Shown piece by piece: positions 566-63,244 of a stretch of 64,000 nucleotides of DNA (position 1 is its first letter; each line of letters opens with the position of its first letter). The notes under the pieces are model-generated. The model was not told the DNA's origin. It searched no databases and worked only from the letters and a program-made list of their open reading frames with translations. Source of the stretch: Alphaproteobacteria bacterium GM7ARS4 (lineage in GTDB: Bacteria > Pseudomonadota > Alphaproteobacteria > GM7ARS4). The DNA lies in NCBI GenBank assembly GCA_014332745.1, contig JACONL010000001.1:28687-92686 (forward strand), given 5' to 3'. The position numbers were made by a program, and so were the translations under genes.

Positions 566-1552
566 TTGTCTTCTCTTGTTGTTCATATGAAAAAAAATAA
601 AATCAAAGTCATTCTTGCCCAACCTCGAGGCTTCTGTGCTGGCGTGGAACGCGCCATAGAAATTGTGGAACGCGCCATTGCTCTCTATGGGCCACCCGTC
701 TATGTCCGCCATGAGATCGTCCATAACAAACGAGTCGTGGAAAGCCTCAGAGCGAAAGGCGCCGTCTTCGTGGAGGAACTGGATGAAATCCCTGAGGGAG
801 GCGTCACCATCTTCAGCGCCCATGGCGTTGCCGAAAGGGTGGAGAAGGCTGCACATCAACGCGAATTACCCGTCCTCGATGCAACATGCCCTCTCGTGGC
901 GAAAGTCCATAAGGAAGGACAACGTTATGCCCTCGATGGCTATGATGTCGTCCTCATTGGCCATGAGGGACATCCCGAAGTGGAAGGGACAATGGGACGC
1001 GTCCATGGAACCGTCTATCTCGTCTCAACGCCTGAGGACGCCCTCGCCCTCAAAGTGAAAAATCCCAATAAACTCGCCTATATCAGCCAAACGACACTCT
1101 CTGTGGATGACACGCGCGACGTCATACGCGCCCTCAAAAAGCGATTCCCCAATATCATAGGACCTGATGTCAAAGATATATGCTACGCCACACAAAACAG
1201 GCAATCTGCCGTGCGCGCCATTGTGGACCATATCGACCTCCTCCTCGTTGTAGGTGCCCATAATAGTTCGAATTCCAATCGCCTCAAAGAAATAGGCTCA
1301 GAAAGCGGCGTCCAAACCCACCTCATTGAAGATATTCATAGTTTCCAACCCTCATGGCTCGATAACGTTCAAACCATCGGCATTACATCTGGCGCATCAA
1401 CCCCTGATGAACTCGTCCAAGAACTCATCGAATTGCTCAGCCATCACCATGATATTGAAATATCAACGCTGGAAGGACAAGAGGAAAATGTCGTCTTTAA
1501 ACTGCCCAGTGAGCTACGCACCGTCAATATGGCCGTTCCTCACTCCGCATAA
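566..1552 (+). CDS. ispH: 4-hydroxy-3-methylbut-2-enyl diphosphate reductase IspH/LytB (likely start at 587 MKKNKIKV)
   Basis: Full-length LytB-like protein with conserved Cys motifs (…FCAGVERA…, …ATCPLV…, …ICYATQNRQ…). It sits upstream of hpnH, a common arrangement. Confidence 0.9.
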   Translation: MSSLVVHMKKNKIKVILAQPRGFCAGVERAIEIVERAIALYGPPVYVRHEIVHNKRVVESLRAKGAVFVEELDEIPEGGVTIFSAHGVAERVEKAAHQRELPVLDATCPLVAKVHKEGQRYALDGYDVVLIGHEGHPEVEGTMGRVHGTVYLVSTPEDALALKVKNPNKLAYISQTTLSVDDTRDVIRALKKRFPNIIGPDVKDICYATQNRQSAVRAIVDHIDLLLVVGAHNSSNSNRLKEIGSESGVQTHLIEDIHSFQPSWLDNVQTIGITSGASTPDELVQELIELLSHHHDIEISTLEGQEENVVFKLPSELRTVNMAVPHSA

Positions 1553-1614
1553 AACACCCCTCCCCATCACTATTCTCCCGCAAAGAACAGAACATCTCTC
1601 ACAAAATATCTCTC

Positions 1615-2832
1615 ATGGCAATCCCTCTTCAGCAACAATTCTCTATCGCCCGCTATATCGTGACGCAAAAAATCAAGGGCGTGAAGCGTTATCCCCTTGT
1701 CCTCATGCTCGAACCTCTCTTTCGATGTAACCTCGCATGCGCTGGCTGTGGCAAAATTGACTATCCCGATGAAATCCTCCAACAACGTATGAGCGTGCAA
1801 GAATGTCTCGAGGCGGTCGATGAATGTGGCGCACCTGTTGTCTCCATCCCGGGCGGTGAGCCTCTCTTGCATAAAGACATCGGCGACATCGTGCGAGGAA
1901 TCGTTGAGAGGCGCAAATTCGTCTACCTATGCACCAATGCTCTCTTGCTCGAGAAAAAACTCCATCTCTTCGAACCAAGCCCTTACCTCGCCTTCTCTAT
2001 CCATCTGGATGGCGATAGGGAAATTCACGATGATGCCGTCTGCCAAGATGGTGTCTATGACAGGGTTATTAAAGCCATACAGGCCGCTCAGGAACGTTCA
2101 TTTCGCGTCAATGTCAATTGCACCCTCTTCGACGGCGTTGATGCCGAACGCACAGCGCGTTTCTTCGATACGATGACCGCCATGGGCATAGACGGCATCA
2201 CCGTCTCGCCGGGTTACGCCTATGAACGCGCACCAGACCAAGAGCATTTCCTACAGAGGCAAAAGACACGCACGCTCTTCCGTTCTCTCTTCCGCCATGG
2301 CGCCCATGGAAGCACTCATGGGAACATTCGCGGGAAAAAACCATGGCCCCTCAGTCATTCAAGCCTCTATCTCGATTTTCTCGCTGGCAATCAAACCTAC
2401 CATTGCACACCATGGGGAAATCCCACGCGCAACATCTTTGGCTGGCAACGCCCATGCTACCTCTTAGGAGAGGGATATTGCTCGAGCTTCAAAGAACTCA
2501 TGGAGGAAACCGATTGGACTCTCTACGGAACGGGACAATATGAAAAATGCGCTAACTGCATGGCCCATTGTGGCTATGAGGCCAGTGCCGTTGAAGATAG
2601 TTTCGCCCGTCCCTTAAACGCCCTAAAGGTCGCCATGAGGACATGGCCTAAAACGACAGGCCCCATGGCAAAAGACATCGATATCAGCAAACAACGCACA
2701 GCGCGCTATGTCTTCGACGGCCATGTGCAGAAAATGCTCGATGACATTCGCTCAGACATAGAACAAGACAGCCGCGCCCCGACGCCATCCCCATCAAAAC
2801 AAACCGCGTTGAATAACACGCACCAACGCTGA
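1615..2832 (+). CDS. hpnH: Adenosylhopane synthase HpnH (radical SAM)
   Basis: CxxxCxxC radical SAM motif (CNLACAGCGK). The conserved HpnH C-terminal block NQTYHCTPWGNPTRNIFGWQRPCYLLGEGY is present. Confidence 0.9.
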   Translation: MAIPLQQQFSIARYIVTQKIKGVKRYPLVLMLEPLFRCNLACAGCGKIDYPDEILQQRMSVQECLEAVDECGAPVVSIPGGEPLLHKDIGDIVRGIVERRKFVYLCTNALLLEKKLHLFEPSPYLAFSIHLDGDREIHDDAVCQDGVYDRVIKAIQAAQERSFRVNVNCTLFDGVDAERTARFFDTMTAMGIDGITVSPGYAYERAPDQEHFLQRQKTRTLFRSLFRHGAHGSTHGNIRGKKPWPLSHSSLYLDFLAGNQTYHCTPWGNPTRNIFGWQRPCYLLGEGYCSSFKELMEETDWTLYGTGQYEKCANCMAHCGYEASAVEDSFARPLNALKVAMRTWPKTTGPMAKDIDISKQRTARYVFDGHVQKMLDDIRSDIEQDSRAPTPSPSKQTALNNTHQR

Positions 2833-3489
2833 CTCCGCACGTTCCATGTGATAGGCAAGGCTTATGAGACTGCCCACTTGCCAAGGACGCCTCAGCAACG
2901 CCTTCATCACACCCCCCACATCATAAGAGCCATCAGGCGCAATGACATGGTAGAGAACGGGAGGAATCGCCTTATCCACCCTATCGACAACGGCGCGCAC
3001 CGCCATAAAGGGAATGCCATGGCGGTGGGCTAGACATGCGCCAATATGACTCTCCATATCCACAACAAGCGCCCCCGTCCTTTCCCCTAAGGCGCGTTTT
3101 TCCGCTATCTCTGGCACTAAAATATCGCTCCCAAACACAGAACCACGCCGCGCAAAAGGCACAGAGGCATACCGCGCCCATAAGGCATGCGACCATGCCT
3201 TATGGCACATCCACACGCCATCCTTATGGTAGATTTTATCGGCAAAGACGACATCACCCACAGCAACATCGTCTTGCAAACCACCCGCAACGCCAAAACT
3301 CATCAAGGCATCGATACCACCATCAATAAGCGTTTGCGCCGCCTTGAGCGCGCCGCTCTTTTCCGCCCCGCTCATCGCCACCGAGAGAGGGACATCACGC
3401 CCACAATGCTTATGACGCTTTAGGCATGACGCCTCACGCGCAAAACCAACGATGACACCGATATGGCGAAACGCGTCTTGCGACATCAT
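2794..3489 (-). CDS. hpnG: Hopanoid-associated phosphorylase/nucleosidase HpnG (MTA/SAH-nucleosidase family)
   Basis: PNP/MTAN-family signature (VGFAGGL-like SFGVAGGL, MESH). Likely start at MMSQ (3489), overlapping the shc stop by 4 nt. Hopanoid cluster context. Confidence 0.8.
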   Translation of the reverse strand: MMSQDAFRHIGVIVGFAREASCLKRHKHCGRDVPLSVAMSGAEKSGALKAAQTLIDGGIDALMSFGVAGGLQDDVAVGDVVFADKIYHKDGVWMCHKAWSHALWARYASVPFARRGSVFGSDILVPEIAEKRALGERTGALVVDMESHIGACLAHRHGIPFMAVRAVVDRVDKAIPPVLYHVIAPDGSYDVGGVMKALLRRPWQVGSLISLAYHMERAESALVRVIQRGLF

Positions 3490-5495
3490 AATCCTTGTCC
3501 AAGCGCCTTCGTGTTGCTCTGTATCATGCGCCGATAGCGCGACAACGCCCAAAGAGGAAAATAGACACTATAGCCACGATAGCGCAAATAAAAGACACGC
3601 GGAAATCCCACAGCGGTATAGTCATCTTCCCGCCAACGCCCATCCTCCTCTCGAGGCGCCGCTAAGAGCCATTCAATCCCCCTCTTGACAGCATCGCTAG
3701 AGACTTCATGGGCGGCAATCAACGCCATGATAGCCCACGCTGTCTGTGAAGGTGTGCTGGCCACCACCTCATCTCGTCTCGAAGGCCAATAACTCGCCCC
3801 ACTTTCACCCCACCCGCCATCATCATTCTGGCGGTCACACAACCACTGAACAGCGCGACGAATATAGGGAGACGACATATCCTCAGAAATGGCATGCAAA
3901 CCCGATAAAACAGACCATGTGCCGTAAATATAGTTCGTCCCCCAACGACCAAACCACGAGCCGTCTTCCTCTTGCTCACGCCGTAAAAAGGCGAGGCATC
4001 TAGCGATGACATCGTCTTCCTTCGTATAACCCCTCTGAGCAAGAAAACCTAAACAGCGGGCTGAAACATCAACAGTAGGAGGGTCGCGCAACGCCCCATG
4101 GTCAGCAAACGGAATATAGTCGAGATAGGCACTCGTATTATCGGCATCAAAAGCACCCCATCCGCCATTCTTGCTCTGCATGCCAATAATCCATCTCTCT
4201 GCGCGTTTCAGGGCTGGCTCATAGCGCGGGTCATGCGCCTTGTCTAACGCTATAGCAACAACAGCCGTATCATCAACATCGGGATAATAGTCATTGCCAT
4301 ATTGGAACGCCCACCCCCCCGGCGCAACGTGAGGACGCCTATCACGCCAATCACCTGCCGCCTCACGCACCTCTTTGGAAAGAAGCCACGCCATGCCACG
4401 TTCATGGGACGAAGAGGCAACACCCTCATCCTCGGCCAACGCTAAAAGCGCTAAACTACTATCCCACACAGGAGAGACACACGGCTGGCAAAAACTTTCA
4501 TCCACATCATCAAACACGAGAAGACGCAACGCCTCAAGAGCCTCCTGGTATCGTTCATCGTCCTTCCCATACCCTAACACATCGAGAAGAATAAGAAAAT
4601 TCATCATAGCGGGGAAAATACCGCCTAAACCATCGCGACCATTACGCCTCGCCATAGACCATGCGACCGCCTTGTTGATGGCATGACGGCGTAGGAAGGG
4701 CGGCGAAAAACGCTCGATGCGTCTCACGATGGCGTCAACATAGACAAATAACGCCCCCTGCCACGTCCCGCGATGATTTTTAATATAGGCAACCTTCTCT
4801 CCCTCCTTTTCTACCCTCAATTCTGTCAACGTCACCCCATGGTCGCCTTTGCTTTGTGGCTTCAACGCCATCAAAGCCAAGACCGGCACGAGAACAACCC
4901 GCGACCAATAAGACACCTTCCCTAGAGAAAAAGGACACCATGACGGAAGAAGGACTATCTCCACAGGCATCGACGGCACCGCCTCCCAAGGAAGCACCCC
5001 ATGAAAAGCAAGGGACATGCGCGTGAAAACATTGCATTGGGTGAGTCCTCCCATCGCCCGAATGGCACGGCGCGCATGCGCCATATGCGGCGCATGGATG
5101 TCATCACCCATCAACTTCAAAGCAAAATACGCCTTGACACTGGCGCTGAGGTCCATGTCGCCACCATAATAGAGCGCCCACCCCCCATGCCCCTTACGCT
5201 CCCCACGCTCTCCATGCTCCTCAGGGGACAGCGAACGCGTACGGCGAATATGGCGCGCAAGACGCCCCTCACGCTCTACATCCTTAATCCCTAAATAACG
5301 ATTCATCATAATATATTCAGCAGAAATCGTCACATCAGCCTCCAACGGAAAAACCCAATGGCCATCCCTCTGTTGCTTGGCACGTAAGGCGTTTTTCCCA
5401 CGCTCGATGGCATCGTCAATATGGCGAAAAAATGCTTTCTTATCGCTCACGCTGTCTGACTCCTTGACGAAGAACCAACAGAGGACACAACGCAT
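3486..5495 (-). CDS. shc: Squalene-hopene cyclase
   Basis: 669 aa. DVDDTA catalytic motif (YPDVDDTAVV). Multiple QW repeats (…GGWGE…, …GSWFGRWG…). Confidence 0.95.
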   Translation of the reverse strand: MRCVLCWFFVKESDSVSDKKAFFRHIDDAIERGKNALRAKQQRDGHWVFPLEADVTISAEYIMMNRYLGIKDVEREGRLARHIRRTRSLSPEEHGERGERKGHGGWALYYGGDMDLSASVKAYFALKLMGDDIHAPHMAHARRAIRAMGGLTQCNVFTRMSLAFHGVLPWEAVPSMPVEIVLLPSWCPFSLGKVSYWSRVVLVPVLALMALKPQSKGDHGVTLTELRVEKEGEKVAYIKNHRGTWQGALFVYVDAIVRRIERFSPPFLRRHAINKAVAWSMARRNGRDGLGGIFPAMMNFLILLDVLGYGKDDERYQEALEALRLLVFDDVDESFCQPCVSPVWDSSLALLALAEDEGVASSSHERGMAWLLSKEVREAAGDWRDRRPHVAPGGWAFQYGNDYYPDVDDTAVVAIALDKAHDPRYEPALKRAERWIIGMQSKNGGWGAFDADNTSAYLDYIPFADHGALRDPPTVDVSARCLGFLAQRGYTKEDDVIARCLAFLRREQEEDGSWFGRWGTNYIYGTWSVLSGLHAISEDMSSPYIRRAVQWLCDRQNDDGGWGESGASYWPSRRDEVVASTPSQTAWAIMALIAAHEVSSDAVKRGIEWLLAAPREEDGRWREDDYTAVGFPRVFYLRYRGYSVYFPLWALSRYRRMIQSNTKALGQGL

Positions 5496-8547: not shown

Positions 8548-8885
8548 TATGATGATGGCTCGCTTGTAAAAGACTCTAAACCAACAGCCTTGCCAGACTC
8601 CAATCGCACCTTGTCAATGCGCCCCTTGGCATCCGCTAACTGCTTCTGGCAGTGCTTCGATAATTGCATGCCACGCTCATAATACGCCACAGCCTTATCT
8701 AACATCACCGTACCTCCCTCTAATGCCTTCACAAGCCTCTCTAACTCACCCAACGCATCCTCAAAACTCATAGACTCAACAGGGGGGGACTCAACAGGGG
8801 GGGACTCAACGGGGGGGGACTCAACGGAGGGGGAGTCAACAGGCGAGGAAGCAACGGGCTGATTATTCTGTTCCTGTGCGTCCAT
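8547..8885 (-). CDS. xseB: Exodeoxyribonuclease VII small subunit with N-terminal (SPPVE)x4 repeat
   Basis: Conserved XseB core (FEDALGELERLVKALEGG…YYERGMQL). Stop overlaps the ispA start (ATGA). The N-terminus is encoded by a 15-nt tandem repeat. Confidence 0.8.
   Translation of the reverse strand: MDAQEQNNQPVASSPVDSPSVESPPVESPPVESPPVESMSFEDALGELERLVKALEGGTVMLDKAVAYYERGMQLSKHCQKQLADAKGRIDKVRLESGKAVGLESFTSEPSS
8774..8842. repeat. 15-nt tandem repeat (gactcaacagggggg)x~4.5 inside xseB
   Basis: Direct inspection. Encodes the SPPVE repeats. Confidence 0.8.
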
Positions 8886-41851: not shown

Positions 41852-42277
41852 TCATGCGCCTTCTCTGGCGCCTTCTCTGGCGCCTTCTCTGGCGCCTTCT
41901 CTGGCGCCTTCTCTGGCGCCTTCTCTGGTGTCAGCGCCAATGGTCGTCTCGTCATCCTTGACATGGTCCATAGCATCCACATCGACATAACGTGGATTTA
42001 AACGAAAAAGAGCGACAACGAGCGCTAAACCAATGGCCGCTTCCGCCGCCGCAACCGTCAAAATGAAAATCCCCGCCACATGCCCAAAAATGTCGGCCCT
42101 GTTGTAAGAAAAGACAGCAAAATTCATGATGACCGCCAACATAGAGAGCTCCAGACACAACAGCATGAAAATGACTTGACGGCGATTCACAACAATCCCC
42201 CACACGCCAATAATAAACAGCATGGTGGACACAATAAGGTAATGCTCTGTCCCAATAACATAAGGATACATTGTCAC
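41852..42277 (-). CDS. nuoK: NADH-quinone oxidoreductase subunit K with ~40 aa C-terminal extension containing (REGA)x6
   Basis: Conserved NuoK 3-TM core (…GHVAGIFILTVAAAEAAIGLALVV…). The tail is encoded by a 12-nt tandem repeat. Confidence 0.85.
   Translation of the reverse strand: MTMYPYVIGTEHYLIVSTMLFIIGVWGIVVNRRQVIFMLLCLELSMLAVIMNFAVFSYNRADIFGHVAGIFILTVAAAEAAIGLALVVALFRLNPRYVDVDAMDHVKDDETTIGADTREGAREGAREGAREGAREGAREGA
41856..41929. repeat. 12-nt tandem repeat (gcgccttctctg)x6 in nuoK 3' end
   Basis: Direct inspection. Encodes (REGA)x6 on the minus strand. Confidence 0.85.
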
Positions 42278-42948
42278 GTCGCCCCTGAACCCGTCTTCAC
42301 ATGGACAAGGCGCACTTTACGCGCCTCTGACGCTTGTGCCACAAGGTCTTGCCTCTTGATATGCTGGGCTTGGCGCTCACGCCCCGTCTGACTCTCCCCA
42401 TGACTCCCCCCCCGAGTCCCCCCATGAGTCCCCCCTTGAGTCCCCCCCTGAGTCCATGTGAGGAGAATAGCGCCCACCATAGCAATAAGCAAAATAAGCC
42501 CCGCCAGCTGAAACAGAGGCATATAGGTCGTGTAGAGAATCAACCCTAGGGATTCGGTATTGGTCGTCTCAACGAGAGGCGCGGTGAAGGCATGGCGTTC
42601 GCCTTGGGACGCGCTCACAGCAGCAAACAACACCAACGTCACAAGCAACACCACCGCTAACACCACCGCTAACGGCATAAAGGCATAACGTCGCCGATGC
42701 TGTGTCTCAGCACCCGCCCCGACAACCATCACCATAAAGAGAAAGAGAACAGCGATCGCCCCCACATAGACAATGACGAGAAGAACGGCAAGAAACTCGG
42801 CGCGCAACAAAATAAAAAGGCCCGCCACGTTGAAAAAAACCATGATGAGCGATAACACGCTGATAACAGGCTGGCGCGCAAGGACAACCACCACCGACGA
42901 CACAATGGCAACACACGCCATGACATGAAAAAAGAGGCTCTCCACCAT
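42274..42948 (-). CDS. nuoJ: NADH-quinone oxidoreductase subunit J with Gly/Thr-rich repeat tail
   Basis: NuoJ TM core with a C-terminal GGTQGGTHGGTRGG repeat region. Confidence 0.85.
   Translation of the reverse strand: MVESLFFHVMACVAIVSSVVVVLARQPVISVLSLIMVFFNVAGLFILLRAEFLAVLLVIVYVGAIAVLFLFMVMVVGAGAETQHRRRYAFMPLAVVLAVVLLVTLVLFAAVSASQGERHAFTAPLVETTNTESLGLILYTTYMPLFQLAGLILLIAMVGAILLTWTQGGTQGGTHGGTRGGSHGESQTGRERQAQHIKRQDLVAQASEARKVRLVHVKTGSGAT
42389..42455. repeat. ~12-nt tandem repeat (tgagtccccccc-like)x5-6 in nuoJ 3' end
   Basis: Direct inspection. Confidence 0.8.
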
Positions 42949-54018: not shown

Positions 54019-54633
54019 ATGTCTTATCAATCCCCCATGACCCAAACGGCAGATTTTTTCGACATGCCTCTCCCTGCTGAGGACCCGTCGGCGTTCCTCT
54101 CATCATTTCGAGAGACGTGGCATGATATTTGCAAGACGATGGCACACCATGATATTCTTGCGTCCTCTGAGGAGGAGAGCCAGAGAGCGGGACACGCGAC
54201 AACACAGCATATGATCCATGCCTCTGAGGAAGCATTGCTCTATCCTTTATCCCTACGCCACATCATCGAGGACGAAGCGATGATAGTGAGCGATGCCCGA
54301 GAACGTATTTATCGCGCTTTTCGCCAAAGTTTTTCCTTTGGCGCGGCGCGCTACCGCCACCATCTGAGGACTCTGCTGAAGGATAAGGGACGCTCGATAA
54401 CGTTCAACAATGCGCGCCAGATCACCCGTGACTTCGACACGAAAATGCACGCCATCCAAAAAACCTTCGAAAGCCACGTGAAAGATATTGTGTGCTATTC
54501 AGAAGACCATCCCATCCACCCACGGGCAACCCAAACCCTCAGCGGCCAAGAGATTATCCATGCCTATGAACATTATAAAATCTCCATGAGCGTCATACAG
54601 AGACTCCTCTCACAGATAGAAGACGCCTCCTAA
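54019..54633 (+). CDS. Hypothetical protein, no recognisable family; stop codon 3 nt upstream of the CRISPR-like array
   Basis: 204-aa ORF with protein-like composition, preceded by an AT-rich stretch. No conserved motifs recognised. Confidence 0.4.
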   Translation: MSYQSPMTQTADFFDMPLPAEDPSAFLSSFRETWHDICKTMAHHDILASSEEESQRAGHATTQHMIHASEEALLYPLSLRHIIEDEAMIVSDARERIYRAFRQSFSFGAARYRHHLRTLLKDKGRSITFNNARQITRDFDTKMHAIQKTFESHVKDIVCYSEDHPIHPRATQTLSGQEIIHAYEHYKISMSVIQRLLSQIEDAS

Positions 54634-54636
54634 GAA

Positions 54637-54871
54637 ACAACAGCCTCCCTGTGTTTGAACGGGCTCTATAGAAGACGGGTAAATGAATAAACCCTAAACC
54701 ACGTGCGACGCTCCCTGTGTTTGAACGGGCTCTATAGAGACGATACATCACATGGATAACTTTCAGGGGTGCGACGCTCCCTGTGTTTGAACGGGCTCTA
54801 TAGAGGTATGGCAGTAGATAAGACAGGACTAGAAGTGCGACGCTCCCTGTGTTTGAACGGGCTCTATAGAG
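54637..54871. CRISPR. Mini CRISPR-like array: four 37-nt direct repeats (GTGCGACGCTCCCTGTGTTTGAACGGGCTCTATAGAG; three identical at 54703-54739, 54769-54805, 54835-54871 plus a degenerate terminal copy at 54637-54673) separated by three unique 29-nt spacers
   Basis: Repeats and spacers were aligned by eye. Spacers are unique, equal in length, and about 41% GC. The last repeat overlaps the stop codon of the adjacent tnpB-like gene. Confidence 0.75.
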
Positions 54872-56105
54872 TTGCTCCCGCCAAACGTCCTGTTTGCAGG
54901 ACGTCAAGGGCTTCCTTCTCTTGCGAGAAGTGGCTCACGCCGAGCCGTAGGATATTTCTGGCGGCGTTTTCATCTCGGTCGATGGTCAGTCCACACACAT
55001 GACAATGGTGTGTCCTCTCATCTAACGATTTTTCTACAACCGCCCCACATCCCGAGCATTTTTGGGATGTGCCTCTTGGGTCAACCTGCACAAAATGCTT
55101 ACCAGCTTCTTCCGCTTTGTAAGCAACTTTTCCTATGAAGGCAGCCCATCCCTTATCATGGATTGATTTCGCCAAGCGGTGATTTCTTGCCATATTGGCT
55201 ATCCTCAGGTCCTCAAAAACAAGAAGGTCAAATCTCTTCACGAATTCCCTTGCGAGTTTATGATGAAAATCCTTGCGCTGATGGCTCACTTTGCTATGCC
55301 ATTTCTGCACGGCGCGCAAGGCGCGTCGCCACCGACATGTGCCCCTTTTGGCGGCGGAGAGCGCTTGCTGTTTTCTTGCCAGCGTCTTCTCTGCCTCGCG
55401 ATACCAGTTCGGACTATCAAACGACTCGCCTTTATCTGTCATCACGAAGCTCTTAATCCCCACATCACACCCCACGGCATGTTTTACCTCACCCTTAGGC
55501 ATAGGGGTAGGCGCGTCACCGATACATGCTCTCACAAACAGGCGATAGCCTTTAGGCGTATGCTTGATGGTGCAGTCACAAAGTGTTGCGTCCTCTGGCA
55601 TGATATTATGGCGCGCCATGTTCGTTCTCATACCCCCTCGCACGCCTTTCACAAAAAGACGTCCTTCCTTTAGCCTATAGCTTTCGGTTATCTCGATGGA
55701 TTTCCAGCGCCGCCATCCCTTAAAACGAGGGAAACCCGGCGTCTGCCCCGCCTTCACCCGACGAAAAAACCCCTTGAGAGCCTTGTTCACCCGCGCCAAT
55801 GCCCCTCGTTGCATTGTCACAGACATCCACGCACAAGCACAATCCTTGTCTTGCCTTATCTCTGTGAGGCTCTTATTTTGGTCATAGAGGGTGATGGTCT
55901 TGCCTGTCTTGCGATAGCACTCTATCCGCTCCTGCAAGGCGGCGTTATATAAATCGCGCGTGAAATTGAAAAAGGCGCGCAACACTTTCGCCTGCTTTTT
56001 CGTAGGATAGAGCCTGTATTCATACGTGCGATGCATCGCCGTTGTTTCCGCGTCTGTTTCCATGTCGCGCTCCTGCCGTGTCCCCCACCCATAATGACTC
56101 GACAC
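54864..56105 (-). CDS. tnpB: TnpB-like RNA-guided endonuclease (IS200/IS605 OrfB family / Cas12-like), intact RuvC-I/II/III and zinc finger; probable start at 56036 (MHRTYEYRLYPT)
   Basis: N-terminal YEYRLYPTKKQAKVL OrfB motif. RuvC-I (VGCDVGIKSF) and RuvC-II (LVFEDLRIANM). Zn finger CSGCG…CHVCG. RuvC-III (DRDENAARNI). Confidence 0.85.
   Translation of the reverse strand: MSSHYGWGTRQERDMETDAETTAMHRTYEYRLYPTKKQAKVLRAFFNFTRDLYNAALQERIECYRKTGKTITLYDQNKSLTEIRQDKDCACAWMSVTMQRGALARVNKALKGFFRRVKAGQTPGFPRFKGWRRWKSIEITESYRLKEGRLFVKGVRGGMRTNMARHNIMPEDATLCDCTIKHTPKGYRLFVRACIGDAPTPMPKGEVKHAVGCDVGIKSFVMTDKGESFDSPNWYREAEKTLARKQQALSAAKRGTCRWRRALRAVQKWHSKVSHQRKDFHHKLAREFVKRFDLLVFEDLRIANMARNHRLAKSIHDKGWAAFIGKVAYKAEEAGKHFVQVDPRGTSQKCSGCGAVVEKSLDERTHHCHVCGLTIDRDENAARNILRLGVSHFSQEKEALDVLQTGRLAGATL
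54885..54904 (-). other. Perfect 8-bp inverted repeat (ACGTCCTG-TTTG-CAGGACGT) inside the tnpB 3' end, candidate guide-RNA scaffold hairpin
   Basis: Direct inspection. Located 14 nt from the first array repeat. Confidence 0.3.
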
Positions 56106-56231: not shown

Positions 56232-57152
56232 ATGCCCGTTCCTCCTTCCTATGGCAAGATTACAGGCTATGAACGAGACATCCGTGTCCAATCGGACAAC
56301 GGCAACCTTGCCTTTCAACCATCAAAACGAACAACAAAAGGGACGTTTGTCGCCTTGCGACGCTTCTTCGGACGCAAAATCTCCTTCGTCACCCATGGAT
56401 TGACAAAAAAGGGACGCAAGCCAACCCTCCCCCCACGCTCCCAAAGTGCCATATCACCAAAAAAACTCCTCTCCCCCCACGATAGCCGAGTCGCTATCTC
56501 TCACCAACTGACACACCATTTTCGACGCGCCATCGACCAACACAGACGCGCCATCGAACAGTGGAGCGACGATACAAAGAACTTGAAGAAACATGCCGCA
56601 AAAGCACTCCCAAAAGGCATATCAAAAGACCAACTCGACCAGTGGCACGACACCACCGAAACCCTGCGAAGAGAGGTGTTGAAAGAAAACTCGACAAAGA
56701 CATTCGACCAGCATGCGCAAAAATTAAACGACGCCCTAGACGACACCATCAAGAGTCACCTCCTGCAAATTAACCCTGACACAGGCGATGTCTCGCGCAA
56801 ATCCCTCAAAGGCAGACAGATGTACGACGTCTATCAGCAATTTACACACTCCCTCGCTATCCTCGACTCCGTCGCCCAGAATATCCAAAAATCGCTCAAC
56901 ATACCATCACGCCAATTACCTAAACCGCCCCAAGATTATGTCAGCCCACGTTCCCTGAAAGACGGCGGATATGAAGACAGAAGCAGCTGGGTTGACGATA
57001 ACAAGGACTATGTCCCTCTCAATCCCGCCACACGCAACCGAAAGGCACAGACAACAGATTACGAACCCCTCACACCCCGTATCCTCGACCAGCAAGCAAC
57101 GTCCCAAGGGAACGCCTCCGCCACGACTGAACGTAAGAGTGACAAGAGCTAG
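56232..57152 (+). CDS. Hypothetical protein (Lys/Ser/Thr-rich, no recognisable domain)
   Basis: 306-aa ORF divergent from tnpB. No motifs recognised. Confidence 0.35.
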   Translation: MPVPPSYGKITGYERDIRVQSDNGNLAFQPSKRTTKGTFVALRRFFGRKISFVTHGLTKKGRKPTLPPRSQSAISPKKLLSPHDSRVAISHQLTHHFRRAIDQHRRAIEQWSDDTKNLKKHAAKALPKGISKDQLDQWHDTTETLRREVLKENSTKTFDQHAQKLNDALDDTIKSHLLQINPDTGDVSRKSLKGRQMYDVYQQFTHSLAILDSVAQNIQKSLNIPSRQLPKPPQDYVSPRSLKDGGYEDRSSWVDDNKDYVPLNPATRNRKAQTTDYEPLTPRILDQQATSQGNASATTERKSDKS

Positions 57153-62287: not shown

Positions 62288-63244
62288 TTAAACATGGATG
62301 TCCTGCTCGCTTCGCCTCTTTTCAATCCCATCACGGGCGCGCTCTGATACGAACATGTGGCCATGCCGTGGTTGCTGTTGGTGACAAAGGGCACAGAGGA
62401 CAACGAGGTTAGAGGAGCTGTTATCGTTTCTCATGCCATTTTTATGGTGAACATGGAGCGCTTCCCTCAAGTCTTGCGAGATAACAACACCACACTGCTG
62501 ACATGTCCAGTGGGCTTTATTACGTACTCTCTCTGAGATACGAGGCCAATCGGATGTATACTTGTTTTCAGGCATCGTCTCTGTTGTATAAATAGGGGGG
62601 TCTTCCGTGAAAGAATAGATATCTATGAAGGCCTTGAAGGCTTGCGGGTCTGTCCCTATGGCGAGAGCCAGTGCCCTCCGCCGCGGCTTCAGCCACTTTT
62701 CTTTCATCCCCTTTGTTGCAAAACGCCACCATACGGGGTACACAAAGGGTGGATAGCCCTGATAGCCCAACTTTTTGAGACAATTCCGGCATGGCCTCAG
62801 GCGTAGTTTCTCATCGCTTATCCACGTCCCGCCCCTCTCGGTTGGTGAAACAACAAAAAGACCATCAGGGTTATAATGCACCCCATATCGTTTGTCGAAT
62901 CTCCCTGCCCTCCGCATCTCAGCAATAGTCTCACATTCTGTGACGTGGAATTTGGGTCGCGCCTCTATATCATTCATGAAGGCATCCAACGCATCACTCC
63001 TGTTCTTGACATAATAATCACGTATATGGACGACAATTCTTCTGCCATGCTCGTCCACAAGGACGCCGCCAACTTCCTTGATTTTGTCCCAATCTTGACG
63101 TGTCTTGATGGTGAAGGTCACAGGCGTAGGGCGAGGCCTATCTTTTTTCGGCGCAAAATTGATAGGCGGCCCTGGATCTGCGCCCTCCGCCCCCATACGT
63201 TTGACGGCCTCTTTTATTTTCTCGAAGGAAACGTCCATGGCCAT
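62288..63244 (-). CDS. HNH endonuclease domain protein (C-terminal HNH; N-terminal domain of unknown function)
   Basis: C-terminal CQQCG…HVHHKNG…N…LCALCH, an HNH/His-Me finger pattern. 318 aa. Confidence 0.6.
   Translation of the reverse strand: MAMDVSFEKIKEAVKRMGAEGADPGPPINFAPKKDRPRPTPVTFTIKTRQDWDKIKEVGGVLVDEHGRRIVVHIRDYYVKNRSDALDAFMNDIEARPKFHVTECETIAEMRRAGRFDKRYGVHYNPDGLFVVSPTERGGTWISDEKLRLRPCRNCLKKLGYQGYPPFVYPVWWRFATKGMKEKWLKPRRRALALAIGTDPQAFKAFIDIYSFTEDPPIYTTETMPENKYTSDWPRISERVRNKAHWTCQQCGVVISQDLREALHVHHKNGMRNDNSSSNLVVLCALCHQQQPRHGHMFVSERARDGIEKRRSEQDIHV

Follow-up and report, generated by a model that had tools for sequence, protein, structure and literature searches.

The locus described here raises the question of how a gene for a transposon-type nuclease comes to end inside a CRISPR-like array, and whether the RNA encoded there still serves a transposon or already serves a small CRISPR system. 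It lies in a stretch of 64,000 nt from Alphaproteobacteria bacterium GM7ARS4 (contig JACONL010000001.1, positions 28,687–92,686), which we call the window, and consists of a tnpB-like gene (protein P0001) followed on the same strand by four direct repeats with three spacers between them. We think it probable that this is a minimal type V system of the V-U*/TranC-like kind, in which an IS605-type TnpB has had the 3′ end of its guide RNA (the omegaRNA) reiterated into a CRISPR-like array. Judged from sequence, defence against mobile elements is the most likely role of the locus.

The original prediction, made from this DNA alone, described four 37-nt repeats, three unique 29-nt spacers and a tnpB stop codon inside the first repeat. 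All of these are present, though the fourth repeat is degenerate. The repeats recur with a period of exactly 66 nt (coordinates are given in Table 1), the stop (TAG at 54866–54864) falls within the repeat that is first in gene orientation, and the spacers are mutually unrelated, with pairwise identities of 17–38%. Repeats 1–3 are 100% identical, including the tail that would form a pseudoknot (see below), and repeat 4 lacks the tail bases complementary to the presumed pseudoknot strand. A 28-nt core of the repeat occurs four times in the window and never in 100 shuffled sequences, and it has no other occurrence across the 64 kb. An Rfam scan of the window at gathering threshold returned a tRNA only; over positions 54500–55150 there was no match even at E ≤10, to a CRISPR-DR family or any other.

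Is the nuclease a TnpB or a Cas12? The start of the gene is read differently by different sources: the open reading frame (ORF) list begins at a GTG, the Joint Genome Institute (JGI) gene call P0001 begins at an ATG at 56063 (399 aa), and homologues begin at an internal MHRTY, which corresponds to an ATG at 56036 and a protein of 390 aa. The Pfam families HTH_OrfB_IS605, OrfB_IS605 and Cas12f1-like_TNB all match above their gathering scores (PF01385, PF07282 and PF12323). With the NCBIfam model guided_TnpB (NF040570), which gives the name ‘RNA-guided endonuclease TnpB family protein’, P0001 reaches 263.6 bits where the cutoff is 100, and the NCBIfam Cas12 models all fall far below their own cutoffs (Cas12f2, 57.5 versus 450 bits; C2c8, 105 versus 350). 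The Cas12f models of PADLOC give E values of 1e-45 to 1e-49 and are thus surpassed by the TnpB model at 3e-78; Cas12u models also cross-match, more weakly than TnpB. In a phmmer search of PDB sequences the best natural relative is ISDra2 TnpB (8h1j/8bf8), aligned over residues 11–374 versus 6–373 at E ~1e-50; LaTranC aligns over the C-terminal ~130 residues only (E 2e-20) and Cas12f at ~1e-6.

Structure prediction points the same way. An AlphaFold2 model built from 55 homologues has a mean predicted local distance difference test score (pLDDT) of 92.3 and a predicted template modelling score (pTM) of 0.84, and its top Foldseek matches in the PDB are 8h1j (E 1.8e-25, template modelling scores 0.71/0.77) and 8exa; by fold, ISDra2 TnpB and ISFba1 TnpB rank ahead of Fanzor2, Cas12f and LaTranC. 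The five motifs that had been taken to make the protein, at 390–413 aa, a complete TnpB/Cas12 nuclease (YRLYPT, GCDVG, FEDL, CSGCG...CHVCG and DRDENAARN) were all found in P0001, and the catalytic triad aligns with that of ISDra2 (Table 1). The CxxC...CxxC zinc finger (CSGC...CHVC) is likewise kept in the ISDra2 alignment and is invariant in the clade described below. On these alignments the RuvC triad and zinc finger are predicted to be intact, and the model and profiles together describe P0001 as a plain ISDra2-like TnpB, with no REC or WED insertions or extra domains, rather than an enlarged Cas12. The earlier view that this is not a canonical Cas12 locus thus holds.

The origin of the repeat can be read from a pair of related loci, L252 and L254. 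The two are orthologous: BLAST homology extends over both flanks, taking in the upstream neighbour gene and tnpB on one side and an aldehyde dehydrogenase gene (87.6% identity) on the other, and the proteins are 75% identical. L254 has five repeats. L252 has no array and exactly one copy of the L254 repeat, AGGTGAGCcCACCTCCAAAAACGGAGTtGTGCTTACCC, and the alignment of the two loci ends exactly at the 3′ end of this single copy. The break in homology at that point indicates that the repeat corresponds to the terminal ~37 nt of an ancestral single guide-RNA scaffold. By sequence comparison, then, the 37-nt repeat corresponds to the final ~37 nt of the omegaRNA scaffold, which comprise a hairpin and a short tail, and the spacers are in guide position. 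For arrays of this type an origin through ‘serial duplication of omegaRNA segments’ has been put forward (PMC10691335), and the matched one-repeat and five-repeat orthologues make that origin directly visible here. We also note that L254 (positions 1030–5150) is ~1.2 kb longer than L252 (1–2919) in the interval from the guide-RNA end to the gene for aldehyde dehydrogenase; the extra DNA holds the five-repeat array and two small unannotated ORFs (3355–3648 and 3648–3890).

The same pair bears on whether a TnpB element simply inserted beside a pre-existing orphan array of another CRISPR-Cas type. Such neighbours do occur, since the TnpB genes at two unrelated loci (L043 and L011) lie 150–870 nt from type I-like arrays, but we find this explanation scarcely credible for the window. 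The stop codon lies inside repeat 1 both here and at a second locus, L170; the sequence of the repeat changes in step with the protein lineage and also with a loop encoded inside the ORF; the array-less orthologue has exactly one repeat copy as its scaffold end; and, as noted, Rfam offers no CRISPR-DR match. A foreign orphan array is effectively refuted by that single copy at the end of the L252 scaffold.

To place P0001 among its relatives we used the best 120 homologues among 5.8 billion clustered proteins. The nearest relative in this set is only 50% identical to P0001, and a profile of the nearest relatives separates a rare clade of 12 members by a gap in score (≥539 versus ≤455 bits). Downstream DNA can be read for nine of the 12 (the others being P0015, P0121 and P0122), and a gene-adjacent mini-array is found in four: P0001 in the window (four 37-nt repeats, 29-nt spacers, stop inside repeat 1), P0003 at L002 (three 39-nt repeats, 28-nt spacers), P0021 at L170 (four 37-nt repeats, 29–30-nt spacers, stop inside repeat 1) and P0124 at L254 (five 37-nt repeats, 29-nt spacers). 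The period is 66–67 nt in all four, though the repeat sequence differs by locus. Each array has identical repeats 1 and 2, unrelated spacers and decay at the gene-distal end, and in three of the four the degenerate terminal repeats lack the tail bases for loop pairing. The protein is a true TnpB, its array is shared by three other, diverged relatives, and its repeat corresponds to the 3′ end of the ancestral omegaRNA scaffold; the original description of the locus as V-U-like and transitional between TnpB and Cas12 is borne out.

The array-bearing proteins are 44–57% identical to one another and all have the catalytic triad and zinc finger intact. No array is present at the five other readable members (P0004, P0005, P0007, P0125 and P0123). 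In a neighbour-joining tree the core of the clade has a bootstrap value of 93% and P0001 forms a long branch just outside it. Wherever downstream DNA is readable, the closest relative of each array-bearing member is array-less, so gains or losses must be frequent; P0124 (array) and P0125 (no array), for example, are 75% identical and paired with a bootstrap value of 100%. As a negative control, ~240 more distant TnpB loci were inspected (80 genome, 80 metagenome and 80 viral). These hold no self-derived arrays except for one separate phage case, L251, and the only other arrays nearby are two ordinary type I-like CRISPRs.

An array might instead be a non-functional by-product of replication slippage, or of recombination, at the right end of a transposon in decay, with the locus on its way to loss. 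The locus is apparently single-copy, lacks TnpA by annotation and has yielded no targets (both set out below); arrays are patchy across the clade, and P0123, also in this clade, is probably a pseudogene with a frameshift. We nevertheless regard this as improbable, given that every array-bearing member retains an intact triad and zinc finger despite the low identity among them, that four diverged loci share one period, and that the predicted fold is confident. The unrelated spacers of constant length (28–30 nt) are moreover beyond what slippage produces, and a tandem duplication generated by slippage was rejected on these grounds.

Several features of the wider set deserve mention in their own right. 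P0123 is found in two 3.7-kb blocks that are 99.6% identical and come from one sample (L255 and L256, 2964–6678), one beside KfrA/resolvase genes in a plasmid-like setting and one on a 1.38-Mb contig; its tnpB is truncated by a 7-nt duplication (ggcttga ggcttga) just before RuvC-III, which probably makes it a pseudogene, carried along with an N6/N4 methyltransferase in a duplicated segment of larger size. P0002 has 710 aa, nearly twice the normal length, on a JGI contig of 6998 nt (446 bits, 38% identity); this points to two TnpB units, fused or in tandem. At L170, the DNA just after the last repeat (4621–4715) resembles coding sequence for the C terminus of a transposase of IS3 type (...YNEEVRPHSSLGYQPP...), and the neighbours include SocA_Panacea, SRAP and an HTH_3/Gp49 toxin–antitoxin-like pair; this context looks like a defence or mobile island. 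The phage case L251 (IMGVR_UViG_3300033233_000004, a viral contig of 172 kb) has a TnpB-like ORF (2510–3790, 426 aa, 37% identical to P0001) with at least four copies of a ~32-nt repeat, GTTGCAACTCGCACGTGTGTATGAGATGACAG, at 3817–4054, starting 27 nt past the stop with a period of 66–68 nt. The two type I-like arrays (L043, 4307–4523; L011, 4934–5431) have 29–30-nt repeats and 32–36-nt spacers and lie downstream of their TnpB genes.

The remainder of the scaffold would lie upstream of the repeat, within the gene. The ISDra2 omegaRNA has a 116-nt scaffold with a pseudoknot between positions −105 to −103 and −5 to −3, a stem 2 between −84 to −81 and −35 to −32, and a terminal hairpin at −30 to −7 (PMC10097598). 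At L002 the minimum-free-energy fold places pseudoknot, stem 2 and stem 4 as in ISDra2: GAAAGC (−107 to −102) is paired with GCUUUC (−8 to −3), GCAGGGGGA (−82 to −74) is paired with UCCCCCUGC (−40 to −32), and there is one internal hairpin and one hairpin within the repeat. RNAalifold, run on eight clade loci, recovers stem 1 as the sole element. This hairpin directly follows the NAAxNI codons in seven of the eight, with compensatory changes in three of its five pairs; the rest of the scaffold is misaligned because lengths vary between loci.

The loop of stem 1 can pair with the tail of the scaffold or repeat at seven loci. The loop:tail sequences are GGCGU:GCGUC in the window (core GCG:CGC), GGAAGC:GCUUUC at L002, GGUG:CACC at L170, GGAAC:GUUCC at L085, GGAAUUG:UAAUUCC at L084, GGUGAG:CUCACC at L171 and, read by eye, GGUA:UACC at L254. 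Complementarity is greater for cognate than for non-cognate combinations (permutation p = 0.008 over seven loci). By analogy with ISDra2 we infer that stem-1 loop and repeat tail form a pseudoknot.

Table 1. Positions of the tnpB gene, its catalytic residues, the putative guide-RNA elements and the array within the 64,000-nt window.
Feature	Position	Strand	Remarks
tnpB-like gene	54864..56105	(-)	413 aa from GTG at 56105 (ORF list)
RuvC-I catalytic Asp D200 (399-aa numbering; GCDVG)	55464..55466	(-)	Aligns with ISDra2 D191; invariant in clade and in 55-sequence alignment
RuvC-II catalytic Glu E284 (FEDL)	55212..55214	(-)	Aligns with ISDra2 E278; invariant in clade and in 55-sequence alignment
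RuvC-III catalytic Asp D364 (DRDENAARN)	54972..54974	(-)	Aligns with ISDra2 D361; invariant in clade
Putative 5′ scaffold part (tracr-like), in last ~85 nt of ORF	54872..54955	(-)	Placed by position from the ISDra2 116-nt scaffold and the window and L002 folds
Stem-1 hairpin GGCUC-GGCGU-GAGCC	54932..54946	(-)	Loop complementary to every intact repeat tail; putative pseudoknot strand
Repeat 1, gene-proximal: CTCTATAGAGCCCGTTCAAACACAGGGAGCGTCGCAC	54835..54871	(-)	Holds tnpB stop; corresponds to 3′ end of omegaRNA-type scaffold, from the L254/L252 orthologous pair
Spacer 1: TTCTAGTCCTGTCTTATCTACTGCCATAC	54806..54834	(-)	29 nt, 41% GC; would be in guide position of complete omegaRNA
Repeat 2, same sequence as repeat 1	54769..54805	(-)	
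Spacer 2: CCCTGAAAGTTATCCATGTGATGTATCGT	54740..54768	(-)	29 nt, 41% GC
Repeat 3, same sequence as repeat 1	54703..54739	(-)	
Spacer 3: GTGGTTTAGGGTTTATTCATTTACCCGTC	54674..54702	(-)	29 nt, 41% GC
Repeat 4, terminal, degenerate	54637..54673	(-)	78% identity; 8 mismatches, 7 of them in last 9 nt

Two further features of the window repeat are of interest for its folding. A perfect 10-nt palindrome, CTCTATAGAG, opens each repeat (54862–54871 and the equivalent positions); it is too short for self-folding, could pair between repeats, and has no counterpart in the other three arrays. A GGGAGC hexamer on the minus strand lies just upstream of repeat 1 (54875–54880) and again in every repeat (54842–54847). 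Either copy can base-pair with the GAGCCC of the repeat, so that the two hairpins exclude each other. L254 has a similar duplicated partner (GGAGG upstream and GGAG inside, read by eye). The duplicated partner could be what remains of a half-repeat, or could act as an RNA switch.

With these elements, the minimal type V system that we favor would operate as follows. A minus-strand transcript would extend from tnpB across the array. The 5′ scaffold would come from the final ~85 nt of the ORF and, together with repeat 1 and spacer 1, make up a complete omegaRNA-like single guide. Repeat 2–spacer 2 and repeat 3–spacer 3 would be CRISPR RNAs (crRNAs) that need the upstream scaffold in trans, in the manner of trans-activating CRISPR RNA (tracrRNA); the short pseudoknot between stem-1 loop and repeat tail, with protein contacts, would be their main tether to it. 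The ribonucleoprotein would then cut DNA matching the spacer beside a transposon-associated motif (TAM) or protospacer-adjacent motif (PAM). New units would be added at the gene-proximal end, either through cas1–cas2 that are encoded elsewhere in the genome and act in trans, or by another mechanism.

One form that such a mechanism could take is that the arrays of this clade arose and grew from the omegaRNA 3′ end with no involvement of Cas1–Cas2, with TnpB or a host factor inserting ~29-nt spacers and duplicating the 37-nt scaffold end on a fixed ~66-nt ruler. The patchy one-repeat and five-repeat states in 75%-identical orthologues and the shared 66–67-nt period of four diverged arrays are compatible with it, and we put it forward as a doubtful proposal.

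A simpler arrangement is that only the gene-proximal unit works. Scaffold, repeat 1 and spacer 1 would form a normal omegaRNA, and the distal units would be stored or fossil guides, unloaded unless recombination between repeats moved them beside the scaffold. The absence of a convincing repeat:anti-repeat duplex in the window favors this, as does the fact that the repeat holds both strands of its own hairpin, which leaves the upstream scaffold with a pseudoknot of 3–5 bp; close relatives, moreover, presumably function with one unit. We consider the arrangement somewhat unlikely all the same. Repeats 1–3 of the window are identical down to the tail, repeats 1 and 2 are identical in four arrays and the terminal repeat alone decays; the identity of the internal repeats points to selection on, or frequent turnover of, internal units. 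TranC systems and an engineered split TnpB guide RNA are also reported, in reviews, to work with separate crRNA and tracrRNA.

Several results weigh against a functional multi-guide array. No protospacer was found, in the databases covered, for any of 12 spacers from four arrays. The spacers have no match in the window or in ~250 fetched loci at ≤6 mismatches; blastn searches of 50,697 isolate phage and 72,556 plasmid records, with the complete array from the window, L170 or L002 as query, gave nothing, or matches at E 6–10, which is chance level; and exact 20-mers of seven spacers had 0 matches in IMG/VR. These searches thus gave no protospacer in support of the earlier suggestion that the system could target foreign DNA. 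Missing protospacers are common for environmental V-U arrays (PMC10691335). We infer that the internal spacers 2 and 3 can be loaded, and the weak duplex support counts against this: the loop–tail pairing of the window is only 3–5 bp; nested co-folding against shuffled repeats gave no significant repeat:anti-repeat duplex in the window (z = −0.9), L170 or L254, with only L002 reaching z = −2.0; and an exhaustive complementarity search for an anti-repeat of ≥7 nt within 2 kb returned chance-level matches and the palindrome CTCTATAGAG only. A scan for promoters and terminators gave no signal above shuffled expectation; read by eye, there is a weak TTGACA-N17-TAGGCT upstream of the ATG at 56063. 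The patchy distribution within the clade implies that selection for arrays is not uniform, and no adaptation genes are annotated by Pfam in the 64 kb.

That last result comes from a check of gene content with Pfam, applied to genes called on public contigs and to the remaining long ORFs of the window, and is thus at annotation level rather than six-frame. At this level cas1, cas2, cas4 and tnpA are absent across the 64-kb window, and no Y1 or serine TnpA family is found among its called genes, in agreement with what had been noted from the letters alone. The surroundings are housekeeping genes: ispH, hopanoid genes, cobalamin synthesis, an RND pump and the nuo operon, with exbB-exbD-tonB on one flank of the tnpB locus and pqqBCDE on the other. 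Taken alone, the hopanoid, pqq, cob, nuo and exbBD-tonB genes suggest a Gram-negative bacterium, possibly a proteobacterium. The GC content of the tnpB region (0.50–0.53) is the same as that of neighbouring DNA. The protein cluster of P0001 has one member sequence, read on two contigs. The locus is apparently a chromosomally resident, immobilized IS605-type TnpB.

These observations bear on the possibility that the locus is still a mobile IS605-type element with its TnpA elsewhere, and that its guides serve homing or retention at former donor sites rather than defence. The established role of TnpB is cleavage of the empty donor site, and family models cannot tell P0001 from transposon TnpBs. 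We hold this to be quite improbable. There is no second copy of the repeat or of a spacer in the 64 kb, the protein cluster has a single member, and in two genomes the related locus L252/L254 has syntenic DNA on either side, and so is vertically inherited. The spacers are poorer in GC than the host (41% versus 52.5% for the window; p ~0.02 for 87 nt by a hand binomial estimate), and no mechanism is known that would account for 29-nt copies of flanking DNA, left by transposition between ends that have been duplicated. An origin of the spacers in adjacent host DNA and a multi-copy element, which the original prediction had counted as contrary evidence, were both looked for: the spacers match nothing nearby and there is no sign of further copies. 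It had treated in the same way a phylogenetic position within ordinary IS605 TnpB clades. Here the outcome is divided, because P0001 does fall among ordinary TnpBs, a position that we read as what ‘transitional’ means, and the sign of multiple copies that was to accompany it is missing.

Other parts of the window are noted for completeness. The tnpB–array unit is flanked by ORFs at 54019–54633 (+, 204 aa) and 56232–57152 (+, 306 aa), which set it apart from the exbB-exbD-tonB and pqq operons; neither has a Pfam family above threshold or a PADLOC model. The stop of the convergent ORF 54019–54633 is only 4 nt from repeat 4, so read-through of the array would be antisense to this ORF. An ORF at 62288–63244 (−, 318 aa) has a weak match to an HNH endonuclease (E 7.6e-4, below the Pfam cutoff) and is annotated by JGI as DUF8245. 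Tandem repeats occur at 41856–41928, 8773–8858 and 42396–42455, comprising a perfect 12-nt unit, GCGCCTTCTCTG, repeated 6.1 times, and other units of 12–15 nt; several of these lie at gene ends or between genes.

Both sides of the step from transposon to CRISPR are present within one small clade of unmodified TnpBs. The same orthologous chromosomal site holds either a single omegaRNA end or that end reiterated five times with new spacers, which gives direct sequence-level support to the published idea that type V arrays come from serial duplication of omegaRNA segments, and means that array formation can precede any growth of the effector protein. The locus also makes concrete the question of who inserts 29-nt spacers with no cas1–cas2 nearby. 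A nuclease of ~390 aa with a natural multi-guide array would be an attractive compact, multiplexable genome editor if the internal spacers are used.

How, finally, does the locus compare with known systems? ISDra2 TnpB of Deinococcus radiodurans (PDB 8h1j, 8exa; PMC10097598, PMC8612924) resembles P0001 in full-length colinearity, D-E-D triad, zinc finger and size. Its guide RNA overlaps the gene 3′ end, with a scaffold that ends a few nt after the pseudoknot strand, and by analogy the window locus would be organized likewise. ISDra2, however, combines a single scaffold with a single guide (the transposon flank) and travels with TnpA in a mobile, multi-copy IS, whereas the window locus stores three spacers between reiterated scaffold ends and is apparently a single copy in a housekeeping neighbourhood, with no TnpA by annotation. 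Where IS200/IS605 elements have one scaffold with one guide from flanking DNA, and TnpA within the element, the window has four scaffold ends and three 29-nt spacers and, by Pfam, no TnpA; the statement that it does not encode a canonical IS605 omegaRNA, based on those four ends and three unrelated spacers, stands.

Cas12f (type V-F, Cas14) is a small effector with RuvC and TNB domains and a downstream array, often with no adaptation genes, and its guide depends on a tracrRNA with a conserved pseudoknot. P0001 falls well short of the Cas12f family profile, at the 57.5 of 450 bits given above, and its fold matches to Cas12f are weaker than those to TnpB. Cas12f is, in addition, an asymmetric dimer with enlarged REC and WED domains (PMC10097598).

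The TranC ‘transposon-CRISPR intermediate’ systems are TnpB-derived effectors beside short arrays (Jin et al. 2025, doi 10.1016/j.cell.2025.09.004; clades 3, 9, 11 and 20 in bioRxiv 10.64898/2026.03.27.714800). As these systems are described, the arrays have 3–20 repeats of 32–38 bp with no adaptation genes, some clades are TnpB-sized without REC or WED expansion, and the guide is proposed to have come from splitting the transposon RNA into tracrRNA and crRNA. P0001 is not in the clade of LaTranC (PDB 9jfo/9jfq), to which it aligns over the C-terminal ~130 aa only (E 2e-20, versus 1e-50 for ISDra2) with a weaker fold match, and in contrast to TranC the window locus has no clear anti-repeat.

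The V-U* candidates are those of Altae-Tran et al. (PNAS 2023; PMC10691335), who defined 40 TnpB branches, V-U6 to V-U45, each with at least two array-associated clusters; the arrays are short, nearly always downstream of the gene and mostly without cas1/2/4. As judged from the published description, the clade of the window fits this operational definition. It has a TnpB-type effector, a same-strand array directly downstream, unique spacers of uniform length, and arrays in more than one related protein cluster (four of the nine readable members). The class was thus already published, as V-U* and as TranC, and the novelty claimed in the original prediction was overstated: the locus is an informative further example rather than a new principle. 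Its particular value lies in the pairing of a plain ISDra2-like TnpB effector with matched one-repeat and multi-repeat states in its clade. Compared by published descriptions, it is an example of the V-U*/TranC class, and possibly a new clade within it.

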